Shown: piece after piece, positions 3,489 to 61,523 of the stretch
How positions within the stretch are numbered: the stretch's first letter is position 1
How the letters are laid out: each line of letters opens with the position of its first letter
NCBI GenBank assembly: GCA_910584385.1
Contig: CAJUAK010000006.1
Location: 41,546 to 105,545 of the forward strand
DNA from: an uncultured Alphaproteobacteria bacterium
GTDB lineage: Bacteria > Pseudomonadota > Alphaproteobacteria > RF32 > CAG-239
Length of the DNA: 64,000 nt
Direction of reading: 5' to 3'
Notes under the pieces: generated by a model
What the model saw: the letters and a program-made list of their open reading frames with translations, nothing else
The model's database searches: none
Told to the model about the DNA's origin: nothing
Made by a program: the position numbers and the translations under genes

Positions 3489-3513
3489 AGCCCCGGAACT
3501 TCGGGGCTTTTTT
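3489..3513 (+). terminator. rho-independent terminator
   Basis: AGCCCCG-GAACTT-CGGGGCT hairpin followed by TTTTTT, immediately after the stop codon at 3483. Confidence 0.7.
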
Positions 3514-3572
3514 GAGCTTATCAGACAACGCCTGAAAGAAAAATCAGGCTTTTCTGTTTTATACGGTTAAGA

Positions 3573-3601
3573 TTGACGAGCTTTCAAAAAAGTGGTATAC
3601 T
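3573..3601 (+). promoter_or_regulatory. near-consensus sigma70 promoter TTGACG-N17-TATACT
   Basis: TTGACG at 3573-3578, an exact 17-nt spacer, and TATACT at 3596-3601. It lies about 100 nt upstream of the ATG at 3700. Confidence 0.5.
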
Positions 3602-3699
3602 AGCTTTTGTTATTAACGTTTATGTTCAATTATTAATCACGAGGAATAAGGCTTGGAACCCACGCGCCTCATAAAATAAAGACGAAAGCAAAATAAATT

Positions 3700-5445
3700 A
3701 TGTTAACTTACCTCTTGTTTGCCCTCATGCTCGGCCTTCTGGCTCTCCTCTTCCCCTTCCTTATCGATAAGGAAGACAGAGAAGAAGCTTGGATCCCTGC
3801 AATTATCGTGGGGATTTGCAGCTTTCTGTTCTGGGGAGCCCTTAACTGGCTGTTGCTGCCTGTCATCTCGCCGGATACGCCGGCGATGTGGATAGAACTA
3901 GCCCTAAGCCTCTGCTTCTACGGATGCCTGTCGTCTCTTCTTGACTATTCAAAAGCAGGAAAGAAGATTATCATCGGCTTGGCGGCTGCCGGAGCACTCG
4001 GCTTGGCTTTTGTAGGCCTCTATTCCTGGGATATCTTTCACAGCAGCAAAAAGTACAATCTTTTGCAGGTGGAAGAAACACAGGACAGCATTGAAAATAC
4101 CATTTCGCCCATTCCCGTGGAAAAGATGGCCATTATCAATGAAAACGTCGCCAGAGCTCTGGTGAACCAGAAAATGAACGACCTTGGCAATCGCTGTGAA
4201 ATCGGCACCTTTACCAAGCAGAGCTTTACCGGGAAATTCACAGCTAAAGAATTCAACGGCAATGTGGTCAATATCGATTACCAAAACCAAATCGTTTATG
4301 TCGCTCCGCTTGAGCACACAAGCTTCTGGAAATGGAAAAAATATCGCCACACCGAAGGATATGCATTAGTCAATGCCAGCGATCCTTCCGAGTATTACCT
4401 CATTTGCGAGGTGAACGGAGAACCTCTCAAGCTGAAATATCTTGAAAGCGCCCACTTTGGCGATAATATTGAAAGATATGTGCGTACGCACGGCTTTCAA
4501 AACAAGCGCCTTAGCGACTTTGGCATTGAGCTTGACGAAAACGGACGCCCGTTTAACGTGATTTCCGTTTTGGAAAACCAAATCATGTGGGGAACGCCGC
4601 TGGCAACAGGTTCTGTCATTGTTGACGTCCAGACGGGAGATATTAAGGAATATGACATTGAACATACTCCAAGCTTTGTTAATCTGGTTCAACCGCGAAA
4701 CGTTGTGGAAGACCTGATTTACTACTGGGGAGAATATGTTCACGGTTATGTCGATTTCTCAGACAAGGACAGAAAACGCGCAACCCCCGGCATGGATATC
4801 GTCCATGACGGAAAAGACGGCTGCTGCTATTATGTCGGCATTCAAAGCAAGGCAAATGCTGATTCAGACGCTGTGGCAACCATCGGGTTCTTAAAAATTA
4901 ATACCATCACCGGAAAGGCTACTTTCTTTAAGCGTGAAGGCATTAACGAACCTGCTGCAAAAAAAGCCATGGCCGCAGACATTTCCGTTGCAAAAGACAT
5001 CCAGCTTGGCACTGTCGAACTGGATGACGCTGTCTTCTATAACATTGAAGGCATCCCGACTTATTTTGCAACATTTATAAGCACAAAGGACAATATGCCT
5101 AAATATTACGGCTTTTGCTCCGCTTATAATAAAGAAGTCGTCGGGGTTGGCACTTCTCTGCAGAGTGCAAAGGCAGCCTATTTGAAATCCCGCGCCGAAT
5201 ATGAACAGCGCCAAGGATTGAAATCATCGGCTGCAGACGTTTCTTCCGTTACCCGCAAGGTTACGGTTGCAGAGAAAGTACAGGAAGGAAACTGCTATTA
5301 TTTCCGTTTCAATGAAACCGGAGATACGGTATTTTATGCATTTTCCGAATTGCTTCCCGAGGTACGTTGGCATAATGAAAAACCGACGATTACCTACCGC
5401 AAAAGCAATGAAACTTCTATTGCTTTGAGCGATTATTCGAAGTAA
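3700..5445 (+). CDS. hypothetical polytopic membrane protein: four N-terminal TM helices plus a ~450-aa soluble domain
   Basis: 581-aa ORF with coding-like composition. I recognise no family motif. It has its own promoter and terminator. Confidence 0.6.
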   Translation: MLTYLLFALMLGLLALLFPFLIDKEDREEAWIPAIIVGICSFLFWGALNWLLLPVISPDTPAMWIELALSLCFYGCLSSLLDYSKAGKKIIIGLAAAGALGLAFVGLYSWDIFHSSKKYNLLQVEETQDSIENTISPIPVEKMAIINENVARALVNQKMNDLGNRCEIGTFTKQSFTGKFTAKEFNGNVVNIDYQNQIVYVAPLEHTSFWKWKKYRHTEGYALVNASDPSEYYLICEVNGEPLKLKYLESAHFGDNIERYVRTHGFQNKRLSDFGIELDENGRPFNVISVLENQIMWGTPLATGSVIVDVQTGDIKEYDIEHTPSFVNLVQPRNVVEDLIYYWGEYVHGYVDFSDKDRKRATPGMDIVHDGKDGCCYYVGIQSKANADSDAVATIGFLKINTITGKATFFKREGINEPAAKKAMAADISVAKDIQLGTVELDDAVFYNIEGIPTYFATFISTKDNMPKYYGFCSAYNKEVVGVGTSLQSAKAAYLKSRAEYEQRQGLKSSAADVSSVTRKVTVAEKVQEGNCYYFRFNETGDTVFYAFSELLPEVRWHNEKPTITYRKSNETSIALSDYSK

Positions 5446-5465
5446 TGCCGGAATCCTCCAATAAG

Positions 5466-5497
5466 AAAACGCGCCCTTAAACAGGACGCGTTTTTTC
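5466..5497 (+). terminator. rho-independent terminator
   Basis: AAACGCG...CGCGTTT stem followed by a TTTTTT run, after the stop at 5445. It overlaps the 3' end of the convergent ppx-like ORF. Confidence 0.5.
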
Positions 5498-6922
5498 TTG
5501 CATTTTCGGAGCCGGGCGGCTGTCGTTTGCCTTTGGGCGCTGTGGCTTTCTGAGTTCCTGCTGCTTCATTTCCGTATAGGAAATAAGCTTTTTATCTATG
5601 TTCATTTTTGTTAAATCCGGCATATTTAAGACCGTTATTCCAAGGCTCGTCGCCGCAAGCACCATATTTATCTGCAATTTTTGAGATTTGATCCCTGCCA
5701 TATCTATCTTTTTTACATTTGCATTGGTTTGGCGCTCTTTAAGCATGTCATACACCATCTGATAATCGGCATTTTCCACTTTGATTTTTGTTTCTTCCTC
5801 ATATTGGACTTTGCCTTTTTCGCTCTTAATAATGAGCGATTTGTCTTTCTGGGGGATTATTTCAATTTTTTTCTCATGGCTTGCGGCACTTTTTTTATAA
5901 AAACCGGCAATCGGCTTATGCCAATCCTGCATTTTACCTTTACCGGTTTCAATCACCTCTCCTTCAATGCAAGAAACAGCTTCTTTTGTTTTTGCTTTCC
6001 TGTATTTTTGCATTAAAAGCCCATCGCCTGGTTTAAATATTTGCGGTTTGACGGTTCCCTTTTCAAGCTTTAGCCCGTCAAGCACCTTGTTGAACACCTC
6101 CATTGCCGGCATAAATTGCAAAAGTGTTGCTCCGGAGGCATATTGTTCCTGCAAAACCTCTTGTGATGGCATTTTGGCAATCTGTTCTGAAACTTTTCTA
6201 TATTCGCCAATATCGGCTTTGGCTGTAAAAGCCGTGATGGCAGCATTATAGCGATATGTTCCCTCACCTTTGTAATTCATTTTACTTACGATACGGGAGA
6301 CGGCGTTTGAATTTGTAATAACCATGGAAATGTTGCTTTTAATTTCATCCCATTCGCAGTTTTTTTGAAACAGCTTTATATATTTTGCTATAATTTTATT
6401 TCTTTCTTCTTCCGAATATTTTTTCCATACTTTTGACCCCAGAGGAATGGACGTTTTGCTTAAGATATCTATTTTGCCGTTTTTTTGCTTATTTGCCAGA
6501 ATAAGTTCCGTACTGGCGCCGCCGCTGTCAACAACCAGGGCATATCCCTTAAAGCGCACCCTTTCGCAAGCCGCTGCAGCAGTTAAGCGCGCCTCTTCCA
6601 AAGGATGAATAATCCGGGCATAGATATTGCATTTTTTGCTAATTTCATTAAGGACTTCTTCGCTATTCTCGGCAATTCGGAAACCGCCGGTAGCAATAAT
6701 TTCAATATTTTCAGGATGAACTTTTCTGGCAGAAGCCTCTAAAACAAAACCCCAAATTTTTTCTGCCAAATCTTTGCCGGCAATATGCTTTTCATCCACC
6801 ATTTCAACAGGCAGCGGCTTATATGAAAAAAATGAGTAATCATCATTTTTTATTGACATTTTAAGGCCGTTAGAACCTATTTCAACAACAGCAACGCCAG
6901 GCATAACCATACATCTCCGCAC
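5477..6922 (-). CDS. Ppx/GppA-family phosphatase with an atypical Lys-rich C-terminal region
   Basis: N-terminal half shows ASKHA/Ppx-GppA motifs (VVEIGSNGLKMSI, LVVDSGGASTELIL). The C-terminal ~180 aa are K/E-rich, with no recognisable HD domain. The true start is probably the internal Met of MVMPGV. Confidence 0.7.
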   Translation of the reverse strand: MRRCMVMPGVAVVEIGSNGLKMSIKNDDYSFFSYKPLPVEMVDEKHIAGKDLAEKIWGFVLEASARKVHPENIEIIATGGFRIAENSEEVLNEISKKCNIYARIIHPLEEARLTAAAACERVRFKGYALVVDSGGASTELILANKQKNGKIDILSKTSIPLGSKVWKKYSEEERNKIIAKYIKLFQKNCEWDEIKSNISMVITNSNAVSRIVSKMNYKGEGTYRYNAAITAFTAKADIGEYRKVSEQIAKMPSQEVLQEQYASGATLLQFMPAMEVFNKVLDGLKLEKGTVKPQIFKPGDGLLMQKYRKAKTKEAVSCIEGEVIETGKGKMQDWHKPIAGFYKKSAASHEKKIEIIPQKDKSLIIKSEKGKVQYEEETKIKVENADYQMVYDMLKERQTNANVKKIDMAGIKSQKLQINMVLAATSLGITVLNMPDLTKMNIDKKLISYTEMKQQELRKPQRPKANDSRPAPKMQEKTRPV

Positions 6923-7061
6923 ATTATTTGCTTTAGCATACTACATCCCGCGTTTTTTGTCAATGAATTCGCTGCAAACCAAATTAAAACAAAGCTTTAA
7001 TTCAACGCGTTCACTTTTGTCCACTTGTTTTCATATGTCTTAAGCAATTTGTGGGACGAAT

Positions 7062-7097
7062 AAAAAAGCCGCATAATTAACTATGCGGCTTTTTTTT
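7062..7097. terminator. bidirectional rho-independent terminator
   Basis: AGCCGCATA-ATTAAC-TATGCGGCT hairpin flanked by an A-run and a T-run, downstream of the minus-strand hydrolase gene. Confidence 0.6.
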
Positions 7098-7111
7098 AAG
7101 TTGTTTAACGA

Positions 7112-7918
7112 TTATTCCTCATCATCATCTTCATCGGCAAAATCATCTGCCTCATCATCAAGATAATCATCATTCAAATCATCGTTTAATTCCTCGTGTC
7201 CATCCTCCAAAAGCAATGTCTCGTCAGTTTCGAGTTCGCTCTTTTTGCGGCGCCCGCGGCGTTTTTTCTGAGGTGTTTTTTTCTTGCAGGCTTCAATGAT
7301 ATAATTGCCGACAACTTTATATAAATCGACCAAATGGTTGTTATACATATGGTCTGCATCTTCCAGAAGGGCAAAGTCGACCTCAACATTACGCTGCGTG
7401 TTTAACCTTCTGGCAAGGGAAGCCACGCTCGCCGGCAGTGCAATTTCATCAATGCCGCCCTGCGTAATCAAACCGGAAGTCGGACATGGCGCCAGGAATG
7501 AAAAATCTTTTTCGTTCGCCGGCGGGGAAACAGCAATAAAATTATTAATATCCGGGCGGCGCATTAACAGCTGCAAGCCGATCCATGCTCCAAAAGAATA
7601 CCCTGCAATCCAGCATTGGCGCGCTTCAGGATTAACCGACTGGAGCCAGTCTAAGGCAACCGTCGCATCGGATAATTCTCCCGGACCGTCTTCAAATTCT
7701 CCCTGAGAACGCCCCACGCTGCGGAAATTAAAACGCAGCACCGAAAAGCCCAAATTCTGAAAGCAGCTGAACAAGGTATAAACAACCTTATTATTCATCG
7801 TTCCGCCATATTGGGGATGGGGGTGCAAAATAAGCGCAATCGGAGCATTAGGATTTTCACTTTGATGATAGCGCCCTTCCAAGCGGCCGGCATGGCCATT
7901 AAACAATACTTCTGTCAT
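7112..7918 (-). CDS. alpha/beta-fold hydrolase with a basic-then-acidic C-terminal tail
   Basis: 268 aa. The core resembles alpha/beta hydrolases, with the nucleophile elbow GYSFG. The C-terminus reads KKKTPQKKRRGRRKK followed by a ~45-aa D/E-rich tail. Confidence 0.7.
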   Translation of the reverse strand: MTEVLFNGHAGRLEGRYHQSENPNAPIALILHPHPQYGGTMNNKVVYTLFSCFQNLGFSVLRFNFRSVGRSQGEFEDGPGELSDATVALDWLQSVNPEARQCWIAGYSFGAWIGLQLLMRRPDINNFIAVSPPANEKDFSFLAPCPTSGLITQGGIDEIALPASVASLARRLNTQRNVEVDFALLEDADHMYNNHLVDLYKVVGNYIIEACKKKTPQKKRRGRRKKSELETDETLLLEDGHEELNDDLNDDYLDDEADDFADEDDDEE

Positions 7919-16660: not shown

Positions 16661-16662
16661 AT

Positions 16663-16739
16663 TGGTCGGGACGAGAGGATTTGAACCTCCGACTTCTTGC
16701 ACCCCATGCAAGCGCTCTACCAGACTGAACTACGTCCCG
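16663..16739 (-). tRNA. tRNA-Pro (anticodon GGG)
   Basis: Reverse complement is CGGGACGTAGTTCAGTCTGGTAGAGCGCTTGCATGGGGTGCAAGAAGTCGGAGGTTCAAATCCTCTCGTCCCGACCA. It folds as a cloverleaf with a 7-nt anticodon loop AUGGGGU and an encoded CCA. Confidence 0.9.
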
Positions 16740-34945: not shown

Positions 34946-35560
34946 ATGGCTGAAGTCAAAAAACTTATCAAATCATCAGAAACAAAAAAAATAAAATCAA
35001 GCGATACAAAGGGCTTAAAAGGCTCTGAAACAAAAAAGCTGACCATGAGCGAAACCCGGGCAAAAAAAATTAAACACGCCTATCCGGCAAAAGATGCAGA
35101 AAATACGCTGCTGCTCAAATTAAAAGACGGCGATGTTGTTATTGAAATGTATCCGGAAGATGCGCCTAACCATGTTGCCCGAATTAAAGAACTGGTTCGC
35201 AGCGGTTTTTATAACGGGCTAAAATTTCATCGCGTTATTGACGGATTTATGGCGCAGACCGGCTGCCCTCTTGGAAACGGCACCGGCGGCAGCGGCAAAA
35301 AGCTCAAGGCAGAGTTTAACCGCCGCCCGCACAAACGCGGCACGGTTTCGATGGCGCGTGCTATGGATGTTGATTCTGCAGACAGCCAATTCTTTATTTG
35401 CTTTGCCGATTGCGATTGGCTCAACGGGCAATATACGGTTTGGGGCGAAGTTACTTCCGGCATGGAACATGTGGATGCTATCAAACGCGGCACCGGCATG
35501 AATGGTTCCGTCTCCCAGCCAGATGAAATCATCAGCCTCAGCGTTTTGGCCGATATGTAA
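34946..35560 (+). CDS. cyclophilin-type peptidyl-prolyl cis-trans isomerase with an N-terminal Lys-rich repeat extension
   Basis: 204 aa with the cyclophilin core (FHRVIDGFMAQTGCP, SMARAMDVDSADSQFFI). The N-terminal ~40 aa carry KSSETKK-like repeats. Confidence 0.85.
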   Translation: MAEVKKLIKSSETKKIKSSDTKGLKGSETKKLTMSETRAKKIKHAYPAKDAENTLLLKLKDGDVVIEMYPEDAPNHVARIKELVRSGFYNGLKFHRVIDGFMAQTGCPLGNGTGGSGKKLKAEFNRRPHKRGTVSMARAMDVDSADSQFFICFADCDWLNGQYTVWGEVTSGMEHVDAIKRGTGMNGSVSQPDEIISLSVLADM

Positions 35561-35563
35561 CTC

Positions 35564-35709
35564 ATAGATATCCCCCTGTAAACAGGGGGTTCTATAGTAG
35601 CTACAAACCTAACGGTTTGATTACGCGCGTTGGCGTGGAGCAGTGTTGTTCCAACACCTTGGCATTCAGCCCCGAATAAACTCGGGGTTTTCTGTAAGGC
35701 ATTAATAAA
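35564..35709 (+). ncRNA. 146-bp structured repeat element, copy A (candidate multicopy sRNA or MITE)
   Basis: About 93% identical to 61345-61490. It contains four hairpins (CCCCCTG/CAGGGGG, ACGC../GCGT, GTGTTG/CAACAC, CCCCGA/TCGGGG), the last followed by TTTTCTG, which is terminator-like. Confidence 0.6.
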
Positions 35710-35720
35710 GCTTTGCATAC

Positions 35721-35755
35721 AAAAACAGCCGGATTTTTAATCCGGCTGTTTTCTT
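35721..35755. terminator. bidirectional terminator
   Basis: CAGCCGGAT-TTTTA-ATCCGGCTG hairpin flanked by A and T runs, between ppiase (+) and fabZ (-). Confidence 0.65.
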
Positions 35756-45408: not shown

Positions 45409-45422
45409 ATAAGGGTATGGAA

Positions 45423-47873
45423 ATGAAATTAGTCATTGTGGAATCTCCTGCAAAAGCCAAAACAATTAATAAGTATCTGGGAACAGATTACAAAGTTTTA
45501 GCAAGCTTTGGGCATATTCGCGATTTGCCGAGCAAAGACGGTTCCGTTTTGCCGGATGAAGATTTTGCCATGAGCTGGGACTTGAGCGCCGGTGGCAAGA
45601 AACGCCTCAATGACATTATCTCCGCCCTTAAAGAATGTGATACGATTGTCCTCGCCTCCGACCCGGATAGAGAAGGAGAAGCAATCGCCTGGCACATACT
45701 TGAAGAACTTACCGCCCGCAAAAAAATTAAAGATAAAAAAATCGAGCGCGTGGTTTTTCATGAAATTACAAAATCCGCAGTTACAGAGGCTATTAAAAAC
45801 CCCCGCGAAATCGACCAGAATCTGGTTTCGGCCTATCTGGCGCGCCGGGCCTTGGATTATTTGGTGGGATTTACCCTCTCTCCCGTATTATGGCGCAAAC
45901 TTCCAGGCTCAAAATCTGCAGGGCGCGTCCAATCTGTTGCACTCCGCCTGATTTGCGAAAGGGAAACCGAAATCGAAAAATTCAAAGCGGAAGAATATTG
46001 GACAATAGACGTCGACCTTTTAACGAGCACCTCCGCCGTCATTAAATCAAGGTTGGTTAACCTGGATGGCAAAAAGCTTGAAAAATTTGATTTGAACAGC
46101 GAAGAAAAAGCCTTGGAAGCCAAAGCAAAAATTGAGGCTCAGGATTTCCATATCGCTTCAATCGAGCGCAAAAAAGCCAACCGTTACCCCGCGCCGCCTT
46201 TTACGACATCGACTTTGCAGCAGGAAGCTGCCCGCAAGCTCCGCTTTTCTGCAAAGAAAACCATGCAGATTGCTCAAAAGCTTTATGAAGACGGGCTTAT
46301 CACTTATATGCGTACCGATGCGGTTAACCTTTCCAAAGAAGCTATTGCCGCCTGCCGGGATGCCATTTTGAAATATTTTGGAGAATCATACCTTCCCAAA
46401 ACAGCCAAAGAATACAAGACAAAGTCTAAAAATGCCCAAGAAGCGCACGAAGCCATCCGTCCGTCAGACGTAATGAACACGCCTAAAAAAATGGAAACAA
46501 AACTCGATGCCGATGCGCATAAGCTTTATGAACTTATCTGGAAACGCACAGTCGCTTGCCAGATGAATCCTGCCGTTTTGGACAAGGTGGTTATTGATTC
46601 GCTTTCAAAAGACGAGAAAATCTTATTGCGCGCCAACGGACAAGTTATTGAATTTGACGGGTTCTTAAAACTTTACCAGGAAAGCCGCGACGACAGCGAC
46701 GAAGATGATGAAAACCGCATTCTGCCCAATGTCAACGAAGGCGAAAACGTTAATAAAGGCGACATTACCCCAGACCAGCATTTCACAACGCCGCCGCCGC
46801 GGTTTACCGAAGCGAGCCTGGTTAAGAAGCTTGAAGAGCTTGGCATTGGGCGCCCGTCTACTTATGCGACGATTATTGCCGTTTTGCAGGAAAGAAAATA
46901 TGTAAAAGTCGAGAAACTGCGTTTTATTCCGGAAGACCGCGGGCGCATTGTTACCGTCTTTTTAGAAAATTATTTCCGCAAATATGTGGAATATGACTTT
47001 ACGGCGCAGTTGGAGGAATTTCTGGATGATGTTTCCGCCGGCGAAATGGAATGGAAGCGCTTGCTCAAAGGATTTTGGGACAAATTCATCAAGAATGTCG
47101 ACGCCGTCCAGCCTTTGCAGATTTCGGAAGTAATTGACAAGATTGACGAAGCGCTTGCTTACCACCTCTTTCCGCCCAGAGAGGATGGAACGGATCCCCG
47201 CTCCTGCCCTGTCTGCGGAAAAGGCAAATTAAGCGTTAAGCTTGGGAAATTCGGCGCATTTTTGGGATGTTCGGAATATCCGGAATGCAAATACACTAAA
47301 CCTTTGATGGATGTAAACGCCGAAGAAGCCAATGACAAGCCTAAAGCGCCTAACGGCGAAGATAAGGTTTTGGGCGAGATGAACGGCCTGAAAATCTACT
47401 TAAAAAAAGGCCCTTATGGTTATTATGTACAGCTTGGCGAAGATGCGACCGCCACAACGGAAAAGCCTAAACGCTCCGCACTGCCCAAGCCGCTCACGCC
47501 CGAAGACATTACGCTGGAACAGGCACAGCGCCTGCTTAGCCTGCCTTTGGATTTGGGCAACGGCATTGTTGTCAATGTCGGAAAATTCGGCCCTTATATT
47601 AAACAAGGCGCAAAATCACGCTCCTTGCGCGGCAATGATACAATTTTTAACATTACGGTTGAACGCGCCGCAGAACTTTTGCAGAATGTTGCGGAAAAAG
47701 CGCCGACTGTCGTGCTTGCCCAAAAAGACAAACAGGACATTATTTTGGCGCAGGGGCGCTACGGCCCTTATCTGAAATGGGGAAAAGCAAACTTTGCCAT
47801 TCCAAAAGAATTGCGCGGCAAAGAACTGACTGCTGAAGAAGCGTTAAAGATTGTTTCCGCACCCAATAAATAA
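45423..47873 (+). CDS. topA: DNA topoisomerase I
   Basis: TOPRIM domain (LVIVESPAKAKTINKYLG) and C-terminal zinc-ribbon repeats. The second ATG is chosen as the start because of RBS spacing (AAGGG sits 7 nt upstream). Confidence 0.95.
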   Translation: MKLVIVESPAKAKTINKYLGTDYKVLASFGHIRDLPSKDGSVLPDEDFAMSWDLSAGGKKRLNDIISALKECDTIVLASDPDREGEAIAWHILEELTARKKIKDKKIERVVFHEITKSAVTEAIKNPREIDQNLVSAYLARRALDYLVGFTLSPVLWRKLPGSKSAGRVQSVALRLICERETEIEKFKAEEYWTIDVDLLTSTSAVIKSRLVNLDGKKLEKFDLNSEEKALEAKAKIEAQDFHIASIERKKANRYPAPPFTTSTLQQEAARKLRFSAKKTMQIAQKLYEDGLITYMRTDAVNLSKEAIAACRDAILKYFGESYLPKTAKEYKTKSKNAQEAHEAIRPSDVMNTPKKMETKLDADAHKLYELIWKRTVACQMNPAVLDKVVIDSLSKDEKILLRANGQVIEFDGFLKLYQESRDDSDEDDENRILPNVNEGENVNKGDITPDQHFTTPPPRFTEASLVKKLEELGIGRPSTYATIIAVLQERKYVKVEKLRFIPEDRGRIVTVFLENYFRKYVEYDFTAQLEEFLDDVSAGEMEWKRLLKGFWDKFIKNVDAVQPLQISEVIDKIDEALAYHLFPPREDGTDPRSCPVCGKGKLSVKLGKFGAFLGCSEYPECKYTKPLMDVNAEEANDKPKAPNGEDKVLGEMNGLKIYLKKGPYGYYVQLGEDATATTEKPKRSALPKPLTPEDITLEQAQRLLSLPLDLGNGIVVNVGKFGPYIKQGAKSRSLRGNDTIFNITVERAAELLQNVAEKAPTVVLAQKDKQDIILAQGRYGPYLKWGKANFAIPKELRGKELTAEEALKIVSAPNK

Positions 47874-47905
47874 AAAATCCCATACTTCGGACAGAGATTT
47901 TATAA

Positions 47906-47933
47906 AAAACCCCGGATAACTCCGGGGTTTTTC
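47906..47933. terminator. bidirectional terminator between topA and clpX
   Basis: CCCCGGA-TAAC-TCCGGGG hairpin flanked by an A6 and a T5 run. Confidence 0.7.
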
Positions 47934-49202
47934 TTATGCTGATTTTTTATCTTTTTTCTTATAGACGAACTTGGGCGCTTTTTTATCGTTAATGACCTTC
48001 TCATCAATGATAATTTCCGCCAAGCCTTTATTGTCAGGCACATCATACATAAGTTCCAAAAGGTTGTCCTCCATAATCGCGCGCAAACCGCGTGCGCCGG
48101 TTTTGCGTTCAATCGCTTTCTTGGCAATTGCACGCAAAGCGCCTTCTGTAATGGTCAGTTTGATATCTTCCATTTCGAACAGGGTCGTATATTGCTTAAC
48201 CAAAGCATTTTTGGGCTCTGTCAAAACCTTCATTAAAGCTTCTTCATTTAAATCGCCCAACGTTGCGATAATCGGCAAGCGCCCGACAAATTCCGGAATT
48301 AAACCGAATTTCAGCAAATCTTCCGGCTGAACATCCTTAATAATTTCGCCAATGCCCTTTTCTTCCGGAGAAGCGACTTTTGCACCAAAGCCGATTGAGG
48401 TTTCTTTGCCGCGGCGTCCGACTATTTTTTCAAGACCGGCAAAAGCGCCGCCGCAGATAAACAAAATATTTGTCGTATCTACATGCAAAAACTCCTGTTG
48501 CGGATGTTTTCTTCCCCCTTGCGGCGGAACATTCGCTACCGTGCCTTCGATAATTTTTAACAGCGCCTGCTGTACGCCTTCGCCCGAGACGTCTCTGGTA
48601 ATGGAAGGGCCGTCGGTTTTGCGGGTTATTTTATCAATCTCATCAATATAAACAATGCCGCGCTGGGCTTTTTCAATATCATAATTTGCCGCCTGAACCA
48701 GTTTTAAGATGATATTTTCAACATCTTCACCGACATATCCGGCTTCCGTCAATGTTGTCGCATCGGCGATTGCAAAAGGCACATCCAAAATTTTCGCAAG
48801 GGTTTGCGCCAACAGGGTTTTTCCGCTTCCGGTCGAACCAATCAGGATAACATTTGATTTTGAAATATCGACATCTTTATGGCTCGCCAGGCAGTTTAGG
48901 CGTTTATAGTGGTTATAGACCGCTACGGAGAGAACTTTCTTTGCCTGGTCCTGCCCGATAACGTACTGGTCCAAAAATTCTTTTATTTTGGATGGTGTCG
49001 GCAAATTGCCTTCACTCTCAAACCCTTGTTCCTGTTTTTTCTGTTCGGCCATTTCATCGGCAACAATATTTATGCAAACTTCTATACATTCGTCGCAGAT
49101 GTAAACGCCGCGCCCGGCGATCAGCTTTTTTACTTCATTTTGGCTTTTGCCGCAGAAGGAGCAGTGCAGCAGTTCGCCGTTATTCGTCTTATCTTCGGCC
49201 AT
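47934..49202 (-). CDS. clpX: ATP-dependent Clp protease ATP-binding subunit ClpX
   Basis: 422 aa with a Zn-binding N-terminus (CSFCGK...CDECI), Walker A GSTGSGKT and an IGF loop. Confidence 0.95.
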
Positions 49203-61176: not shown

Positions 61177-61344
61177 TATTTTTTCCTCTTACTCATTCAA
61201 ACTGGCAAAAGAATAGCAGAATTCAAATTTTAAATCAGAGTTTTTTTGCATTTATGCCCAGATTAAAATGCCAATTTCCTCTCTACGGGCAAAAAAACGC
61301 CCTTAAAATCGATTTATTCAATTTTTAAGGCGCAAATCGTTAAC

Positions 61345-61490
61345 ATAGATATCCCCCAGTAAACAGGGGGTTCTATAGTCGCTACAAACCTAACGGTTTG
61401 ACCACGCTCGTTGGCGTGGAACGGTGTTGTTTCAACACCTTGGCATTCAGCCCCGAGTAAACTCGGGGTTTTCTGTAAGGCATTAATAAA
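61345..61490 (+). ncRNA. 146-bp structured repeat element, copy B
   Basis: About 93% identical to 35564-35709 and in the same orientation. Ends with the CCCCGAG-TAAA-CTCGGGG hairpin followed by a T-run. Sits in the gyrA-ssb intergenic region. Confidence 0.6.
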
Positions 61491-61493
61491 AAT

Positions 61494-61523
61494 GAAAAAA
61501 GCCCGTTTTAACGGGCTTTTTTT
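61494..61523. terminator. bidirectional terminator downstream of ssb
   Basis: GCCCGTT-TT-AACGGGC hairpin flanked by an A6 and a T7 run. Confidence 0.65.

Follow-up and report, generated by a model that had tools for sequence, protein, structure and literature searches.

A 146-nt repeat beside intrinsic terminators in uncultured gut Alphaproteobacteria very probably derives from an IS200-group insertion sequence and carries no gene

Introduction

The window analysed here, a stretch of 64,000 nucleotides from an uncultured alphaproteobacterium known only from MAGs (G+C 43%), contains two similar intergenic sequences of 146 nt that fold into a row of hairpins. A first-pass annotation had noted that one substitution between them leaves an RNA stem paired through G-U wobbles and had read this as a sign of selection on RNA structure, raising the question of whether the repeat represents a structured RNA or has another origin. 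Comparison with its relatives in other genomes led us to regard the repeat as an ordinary mobile element and not as a new structured RNA, and to see in its clean association with intrinsic terminators its most interesting property.

Two copies of the repeat, each next to a terminator

A BLAST search of the window with copy B (61344–61490) gave a single other match, copy A at 35563–35709, located on the same strand at a coordinate offset of 25781 bp and identical at 138 of 147 positions without any indel (93.9% over 147 nt by BLAST and alignment). With a covariance model derived from 38 sequences of the family, only 61345–61490 (175.6 bits) and 35564–35709 (162.9 bits) were retrieved in the window, so that both methods confirm the second copy of the 146-bp element reported earlier and find exactly two. 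This model search of the window revealed no degenerate further copies beyond A and B, and a 15-bit match at 47902–48049 was discarded as an ordinary bidirectional terminator. The bidirectional terminator behind this weak match, at 47887–47935 and situated between the convergent genes 45417–47873 (plus strand) and 47934–49202 (minus strand), has a hairpin, CCCCGGATAACTCCGGGG, that resembles the element's own and is followed on the minus strand by TTTTTTAT; it constitutes an ideal-looking, unoccupied target.

Copy B lies between the start of gyrA (61176, minus strand) and the stop of ssb (61538, minus strand). The element proper, supported by the BLAST and covariance-model matches, comprises 141 nt (61345–61485, minus strand), its boundaries being set by ~70 aligned copies and two empty-site comparisons and its orientation being taken from relatives that carry a tnpA transposase gene. 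The top, transposase-sense strand corresponds to the minus strand of the window, with the right end at 61345 and the left end at 61485. Folding located a right-end subterminal hairpin at 61353–61370 (minus strand; CCCCCAGTAAACAGGGGG on the plus strand), a left-end subterminal hairpin at 61451–61468 (minus strand; CCCCGAGTAAACTCGGGG on the plus strand) and, between them, an unstranded internal module of three hairpins (61385–61439) consisting of 61385–61400, 61402–61419 with the CCACGC/GCGTGG stem, and 61423–61439. Viewed on the plus strand, the left-end hairpin and the TTTT following it have the look of an intrinsic terminator. The left end is abutted by the flank-derived target TTTAT (ATAAA on the plus strand; 61486–61490, minus strand), beyond which the terminator scan and the ssb open reading frame placed the bidirectional intrinsic terminator of ssb (61495–61522, minus strand), which consists of a hairpin and a T-run. 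Copy B is inserted just after this terminator.

Copy A is situated between the stop of a cyclophilin-type PPIase gene (35560, plus strand) and the stop of fabZ (35769, minus strand), and was delimited by BLAST, alignment and the covariance model to 35564–35704 (minus strand), with a right-end hairpin at 35572–35589, a left-end hairpin at 35670–35687 and a derived TTACGC/GCGTGG stem at 35621–35638. Its TTTAT target (ATAAA on the plus strand; 35705–35709, minus strand) likewise abuts the left end, and copy A sits on the minus strand just past the bidirectional terminator hairpin downstream of fabZ (35722–35752, minus strand; terminator scan and ORFs). Only 3 nt separate the PPIase stop codon (35558–35560) from the right tip of copy A. 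A few bases past each copy there is hence an unrelated G+C hairpin with A/T runs, the ssb and fabZ terminators, respectively. The two window copies, 6–7% off the family consensus and off each other, are old. The PPIase next to copy A carries an N-terminal extension of ~45 aa (window 34946–35080) with lysine-, serine- and threonine-rich repeats (SSETKKIKSSDTKGLKGSETKKLTMSETRAKK), and its BLAST alignments to relatives start at residue 23 only.

A family of about 100 copies

Scanning one genome per GTDB species with the exact pattern GGCATTCAG-N18-26-TTTTCTGTAAGG yielded 94 stretches, where ~2 are expected by chance. Two of them, in Bacteroidota MAGs, contained nothing element-like outside the pattern; the remaining ones derived from ~30 MAGs labelled as uncultured Alphaproteobacteria or proteobacterium, ‘Acetobacter sp. 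46_36’ or ‘Azospirillum sp. 51_20’. In the pattern-derived loci BLAST identified ~100 copies, most of them 93–95% identical to copy B and with flanks unrelated to one another. The copy number per MAG reached at least 13 and, as the scan demanded the exact pattern, such counts are lower bounds. Many copies lie at contig ends, as expected for a repeat that breaks assemblies. The aligned copies exhibit a sharp left boundary at ATAGATATCC, preceded by a variable base, and a right boundary reading ...GGCA(AC/T)TA, then ATAAA. These data document an abundant, previously unnamed family of repeats from a clade of gut Alphaproteobacteria that has received little study, and knowledge of it should aid annotation as well as MAG assembly, given the many copies at contig ends.

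Searching the JGI metagenome collection with a subfamily-specific 21-mer resulted in a single match, a decayed copy in another organism (L116, 683–815) with ~85% identity, which has lost its right-end hairpin and still lies upstream of a hairpin. The copy at L058 2749–2892 has a tRNA-Pro gene no more than ~130 nt away, which shares 92% identity with the tRNA-Pro of the window (L058 ~2600–2750 versus window 16661–16739). Several MAGs, one of them twice, furthermore contain a ~215-bp segment composed of the beginning of a gene, the region upstream of it and a terminator, a second repeated or paralogous unit at 78–84% identity (L014 ~3940–4300, L040 2173–2391, L066 2255–2465 and L045 1157–1367) and unrelated to the element.

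The ends of the repeat belong to an IS200-type insertion sequence

Within locus L019, the two ends of the repeat enclose a 142-aa open reading frame (3579–4007) in an element of 558 bp (3510–4067). The BLAST matches between this element and the repeat are confined to the ends (query 2–35 and 100–145), the first 34 and the last 46 nt of the repeat being held apart by ~480 bp, with the open reading frame on the opposite strand. The encoded protein matched Pfam Y1_Tnp (PF01797) over its whole length with 1.9e-31, and the NCBIfam transpos_IS200 equivalog (NF033573) with 122.9 bits at a cutoff of 55. It also matched the solved TnpA structures 2ec2, 2a6m and 2xm3 (Sulfolobus, IS608, ISDra2), with which its HUH motif and catalytic tyrosine align. 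It is at most ~62% identical to annotated plasmid-borne homologues. REP/BIME sequences with their RAYT (TnpA-REP) are comparable in being intergenic palindromic repeats related to IS200/IS605 ends and in involving a Y1 enzyme, but REPs are single hairpins of 20–40 nt, in contrast to 141 nt and five hairpins here. We rejected a REP/RAYT assignment, as the transposase reached only 29.1 bits on the REP-transposase model NF047646 (cutoff 80), compared to its score on the IS200 model.

A TnpA homologue with 92% identity (P0123) is encoded in elements of 557–559 bp whose right end is the same and whose left end is closely related, and more full-length tnpA copies were found in L104–L112 (L104 883–1441, L106 1431–1989, L108 279–837, L112 1299–1855). 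These tnpA-carrying relatives, 557–559 bp long, lack an internal left-end terminator and always lie behind a host terminator; the right-end hairpin of the repeat forms the right end of these full insertion sequences too. The central 64 nt of the repeat, with its three hairpins, have no counterpart in them. Since both ends are common with a TnpA-encoding element, the 146-nt repeat is, with high probability, a gene-less derivative of an insertion sequence of ~559 bp of the IS200 group (IS200/IS605 family), similar to a PATE; the central 64-nt module may have an added function. A tblastn search of the window and the 94 pattern loci detected a transposase gene in L019 only and none in the window. 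Current mobility in the window genome is thus unproven, as neither the window nor the other 93 pattern loci contain a transposase gene. Among the full-length elements, L108, L109 and L110 have a common flank upstream of the insertion sequence and three different ones downstream (at ~837, 816 and 1057), one of which is the flank found in L104. Either copies have recombined here, or the metagenome assembly has joined unrelated contigs through the repeat into chimeras.

PATEs, palindrome-associated transposable elements, are non-autonomous, gene-less members of the IS200/IS605 family described in Haloquadratum (PMC3119063) and Geobacillus stearothermophilus (PMC10055086). In common with these, the repeat has IS200/IS605-type ends with subterminal hairpins, no protein gene, a need for mobilisation in trans and a conserved adjoining pentanucleotide, TTTAT being also the transposon-adjacent motif of ISGst2 (PMC10055086). 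It differs from them by its 64-nt three-hairpin insert, its host among uncultured gut Alphaproteobacteria, the coupling of nearly all copies to host terminators and its parent, which is of the IS200 group and encodes tnpA only. As the parent insertion sequences carry neither tnpB nor iscB, the repeat has no evident omega-RNA role, and we set it aside as an omega-RNA source.

Insertion sites and a proposed transposition route

The terminal inverted identity of the repeat amounts to 1/12 and 4/20, i.e. there are no terminal inverted repeats. Aligning the two subterminal hairpins along with the adjacent 8–10 nt gave a score of 17 in direct as opposed to 10 in inverted orientation, showing that they are direct copies of each other, which is the architecture of IS200/IS605 (PMC3333891). 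Two filled/empty pairs were available, L060 with a copy and the orthologous L032 site without one, as well as L014 with a copy and L040, a paralogous segment of the same MAG, without one. Both comparisons indicated a clean insertion 3′ of TTTAT without target duplication and with the junction defined within 1 nt, this ambiguity stemming from sequences that are only 84–90% identical. With the element removed, both pairs read hairpin, T-run, (T)TTAT and then flank. A classical MITE with terminal inverted repeats, target-site duplication and a DDE-transposase parent was rejected based on the missing inverted repeats and target-site duplication.

The pentanucleotide at the left end is mostly TTTAT, with TTGAT, CTTAT, GTTAT or AATAT in some copies, and the next bases are constant, indicating that the pentanucleotide belongs to the flank, as the target, and not to the element. 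In the tandem arrays of L043 and L033 a younger, consensus-like copy lies beside the terminator and a decayed copy further off, an order that suggests that an insertion leaves the target intact for further use. Such tandem or nested arrangements, with a decayed or truncated copy on the side away from the terminator, are seen at L043 3560–3835, L033 3512–3717, L007 164–381 and L061 ~5560–5742.

The four bases that precede each hairpin foot on its 5′ side read, on the top strand, AAAA (left end) and AGAA (right end); in copy B they correspond to TTTT at 61469–61472 and TTCT at 61371–61374 on the plus strand. The right tip of the element is TCTAT (ATAGA on the plus strand; 61345–61349), the putative right cleavage motif. 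Aligning these presumed guides with TTTA(T) and TCTA(T) yields A:T, then A:T at the left or G:C at the right end, A:T, and A:A. This predicted pattern, three canonical pairs plus an A:A, resembles the one described for IS608. By analogy, we infer that the single difference between the cleavage motifs is matched by the single difference between the guides. In IS608, the cleavage site is paired by a guide located 5′ of the hairpin foot (PMC3333891).

The top strand coincides with the G-rich strand for 66 of 90 copies (p=1e-5), both window copies included. This bias is what the family's preference for lagging-strand templates would produce; orientation along the upstream genes (68/78) is a confounder, and the replication direction was derived from skew only. 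The element would resemble IS608 and ISDra2 in its top-strand-specific ends, in a guide 5′ of the hairpin foot that presumably matches the cleavage motif, in insertion 3′ of a 4–5-nt target without duplication and perhaps in the lagging-strand template bias (PMC3333891). In contrast, those two elements target TTAC and TTGAT instead of TTTAT and carry tnpB, and no terminator association was reported for them.

Extrapolating from IS608 and ISDra2, TnpA supplied in trans would bind both hairpins on the top strand (window minus), where the presumed guides, AAAA at the left and AGAA at the right end, would pair with TTTAT (flank) and TCTAT (right tip), the motifs to be cleaved. The element would then leave as a circle of single-stranded DNA and re-enter 3′ of a further TTTAT, in DNA that is single-stranded at a replication fork. 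The TTTAT chosen would almost always be the end of an intrinsic terminator T-tract, giving rise to the order gene, terminator, element, and the hairpins would be kept because the transposase reads DNA hairpins, not owing to an RNA function.

Hairpins are conserved at the family level

The wobble substitution itself is present as described, the stem CCACGC/GCGTGG of copy B (61402–61407/61414–61419) corresponding to TTACGC/GCGTGG in copy A (35621–35626/35633–35638), in which two U-G pairs are possible. Its interpretation as a sign of RNA-level selection did not hold, as copy A alone of the 38 distinct sequences carries the TT variant, and for this stem the alignment counts only 1 double change against 11 unpaired cells, besides 7 one-sided changes. 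On the minus strand, the one a transposase would act on, the TT change of copy A produces two C-A mismatches.

Between copies A and B, substitutions are spread essentially at random over paired and unpaired positions, the outcome that the first-pass annotation had given as refuting its reading: five of the nine differences fall into paired and four into unpaired columns, equalling the 56% share of paired columns, and of the five paired ones, one restores a pair (column 14), two give G-U and two give A-C mismatches. At the family level the structure is nonetheless conserved. Both copies fold into five hairpins, with both strands outperforming shuffled sequences (z −3.5 to −6.0). Scoring 38 distinct aligned copies against the five-hairpin structure, with shuffled and slid controls, we observed 95.3% of cells to be paired, compared to far lower values in the slid controls, and double changes at 7 pairs and in 24 cells, compared to 3.6 and 5.4 in the shuffles. 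The double changes locate mainly to the right-end hairpin, with variants CCCCCAG/CTGGGGG versus CCCCGGG/CCCGGGG and CCTCGGG/CCCGAGG, and to the fourth hairpin (61423–61439), which is the third of the internal module and the only one therein with compensatory change. The part of the earlier claim that concerned selection on structure therefore stands insofar as hairpins are kept by compensatory change across the family, whereas RNA as its cause is not supported.

A two-copy small structured RNA gene, or a cis-acting RNA element, under selection for RNA pairing might account for the plus strand folding into five hairpins with a z of about −6, the last of them terminator-like, and for some of the compensatory changes; it would also agree with the position of copy A, 3 nt past the PPIase stop, where transcription of that gene must include the copy in the 3′ UTR. 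The minus strand, though, folds about as well as the plus strand. One-sided stem changes across the family give 31 G-T and 38 A-C combinations on the plus strand; as A-C on the plus strand is G-T on the minus strand, these similar counts reveal no strand asymmetry, no strand-specific G-U excess that would mark a functional RNA strand was detected, and the changes look like neutral transitions. Rfam scans at gathering and permissive thresholds retrieved no family, only tRNAs and sub-threshold terminator-like matches, and scans around both copies detected neither promoter-like sites nor a conserved upstream sequence. Together with the ~100 copies in unrelated flanks and both ends being common to a transposase-carrying insertion sequence, this makes an RNA gene very improbable. 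Family-level hairpin conservation is better explained by the transposase reading DNA hairpins, and the wobble of copy A, a false lead now removed, by neutral decay in an old transposon copy and not by a new RNA.

Association with intrinsic terminators

A G+C hairpin lies within 12 nt on the left-end side of 82 of 95 copies (86%) and on the opposite side of 1 of 74. As a control, the same holds for 6.2% of all TTTAT sites in these loci and for 11.5% of the non-coding ones, i.e. those outside long ORFs. Likewise, the median folding energy of the adjacent 40 nt was −14.8 kcal/mol on the hairpin side versus −3.3 on the other. The neighbouring gene points to the element in 68 of 78 cases on the hairpin side and in 44 of 59 cases on the other side, indicating that the usual setting is a gene tail, often between convergent genes. 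For the full-length copies, a host hairpin with its T-run precedes each of the five independent sites (5/5). Measured from the insertion point, the first G/C pair of the hairpin is most often 9–10 nt away (mode), and 77 of 82 values fall within 5–12 nt; in the element itself, 8 nt separate the right-end hairpin from the right tip.

In a survey from 2026, terminator-like sequences were enriched immediately ahead of insertion sequences, IS200/IS605 showing the strongest effect (PMC13548323). IS200 of Salmonella and IS1541 of Yersinia share with the parent element the single Y1 transposase gene, the absence of inverted repeats and a hairpin near the left end. They also have in common a terminator directly ahead of tnpA, which in IS200 shields this gene from outside transcription (PMC4513863). 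Unlike the 557–559-bp elements here, where the upstream terminator is that of a host gene, IS200 measures 707 bp and has the terminator inside its left end. In light of the survey enrichment and of IS200's own left-end terminator, the pattern observed here is in line with the IS200/IS605 family. The genome-wide pattern has been reported recently and is mechanistically unexplained, and the ~100 insertions, 86% of them at terminators, provide an unusually clean natural data set on it.

Two explanations for the terminator adjacency were considered. The transposase complex could actively choose its sites by structure, recognising a hairpin, a T-rich stretch and TTTAT that together mimic its own right end. 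This would agree with the excess of hairpin-adjacent copies over non-coding TTTAT sites, the recurrence of a hairpin and T-run ahead of every full-length site, and the narrow spacing near the element's own 8 nt. Alternatively, T-tracts may happen to end in TTTAT, with harmful insertions being lost. T-tracts of 6–9 T followed by AT yield equal spacing without any hairpin recognition, and selection may simply remove insertions elsewhere. Moreover, the studied family members read their target solely by guide base pairing (PMC3333891), and many hairpin-adjacent TTTAT sites are empty (150 in the sampled loci; 47887–47935 in the window). An active, structure-guided choice is hence possible, albeit not the reading we would favour.

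The most far-reaching proposal, that this IS200-group lineage and its derivative home to terminators by DNA shape, namely a hairpin with TTTAT ~9–10 nt further on, borrow the host terminator against read-through into tnpA and, through copies at operon ends, aid operon-breaking recombination, is rather unlikely as a whole. If true, the borrowed host terminator could explain the reduction of the autonomous form to ~559 bp, target choice by a Y1 transposase would rest on shape plus a 4–5-nt guide match, and copies at operon ends would serve as recombination substrates, possibly in the fabZ/lpxA split of this genome. Shape homing would also constitute a DNA-transposon parallel to group IIC introns, which are found right after intrinsic terminator hairpins and are oriented like the gene ahead of them (PMC1702495). 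Those introns differ in being retroelements with a ribozyme and a reverse transcriptase, neither of which is present here; a group IIC intron was rejected, as Rfam scans of window and locus gave no group II intron match and the only ORF of the long form encodes a Y1 transposase.

Gene order around copies A and B

Copy A was found to mark a synteny break, as the first-pass annotation had proposed, cutting fabZ off from lpxA-lpxI-lpxB. In three related lineages (FabZ 89–92% identical) the order is fabZ, terminator, lpxA, lpxI, lpxB, whereas in the window copy A comes next after the fabZ terminator and is adjoined by the end of the convergent PPIase gene, itself without its usual neighbour. Among the relatives, two lineages have a terminator and a convergent SIMPL-domain gene downstream of the PPIase gene and one has other genes there, and no element is present at any of these sites. 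The PPIase stop lies 3 nt from the terminator T-run in those relatives and 3 nt from the right tip of the element in the window. The break fits, without this being proven, an inversion by recombination between two copies that had followed the SIMPL and the fabZ terminators, respectively. Of the genes expected around the reciprocal junction of such an inversion (SIMPL, terminator, element, lpxA), neither the window nor any fetched locus of the window species contained SIMPL, lpxA, lpxI or lpxB; the rearrangement may instead have come first and the element inserted later. Copy A thus lies at the exact split point of the conserved fabZ-lpxA-lpxI-lpxB lipid A cluster and is a candidate for repeat-mediated rearrangement.

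The common orientation of copies A and B, 25,781 bp apart, would also be compatible with attachment-site-like borders of a 25.8-kb island or with the scar of a recent segmental duplication. The interval, however, holds the core genes fabZ, lpxD, bamA, a gene for an rseP-type protease and gyrA in the order seen in relatives, the copies are just 94% identical, and the element occurs at ~100 unrelated loci. No strain missing exactly this interval with one repeat left was present among 24 contigs. Gene content and copy number led us to reject the island reading, to which we assign next to no probability.

At copy B the ssb-gyrA junction may be either ancestral or rearranged. In L033, whose GyrA is 87% identical, a 1091-aa open reading frame (3846–7121, minus strand) without any Pfam domain match occupies the position upstream of gyrA where the window has ssb, and the elements of this locus lie after the terminator of the 1091-aa gene.
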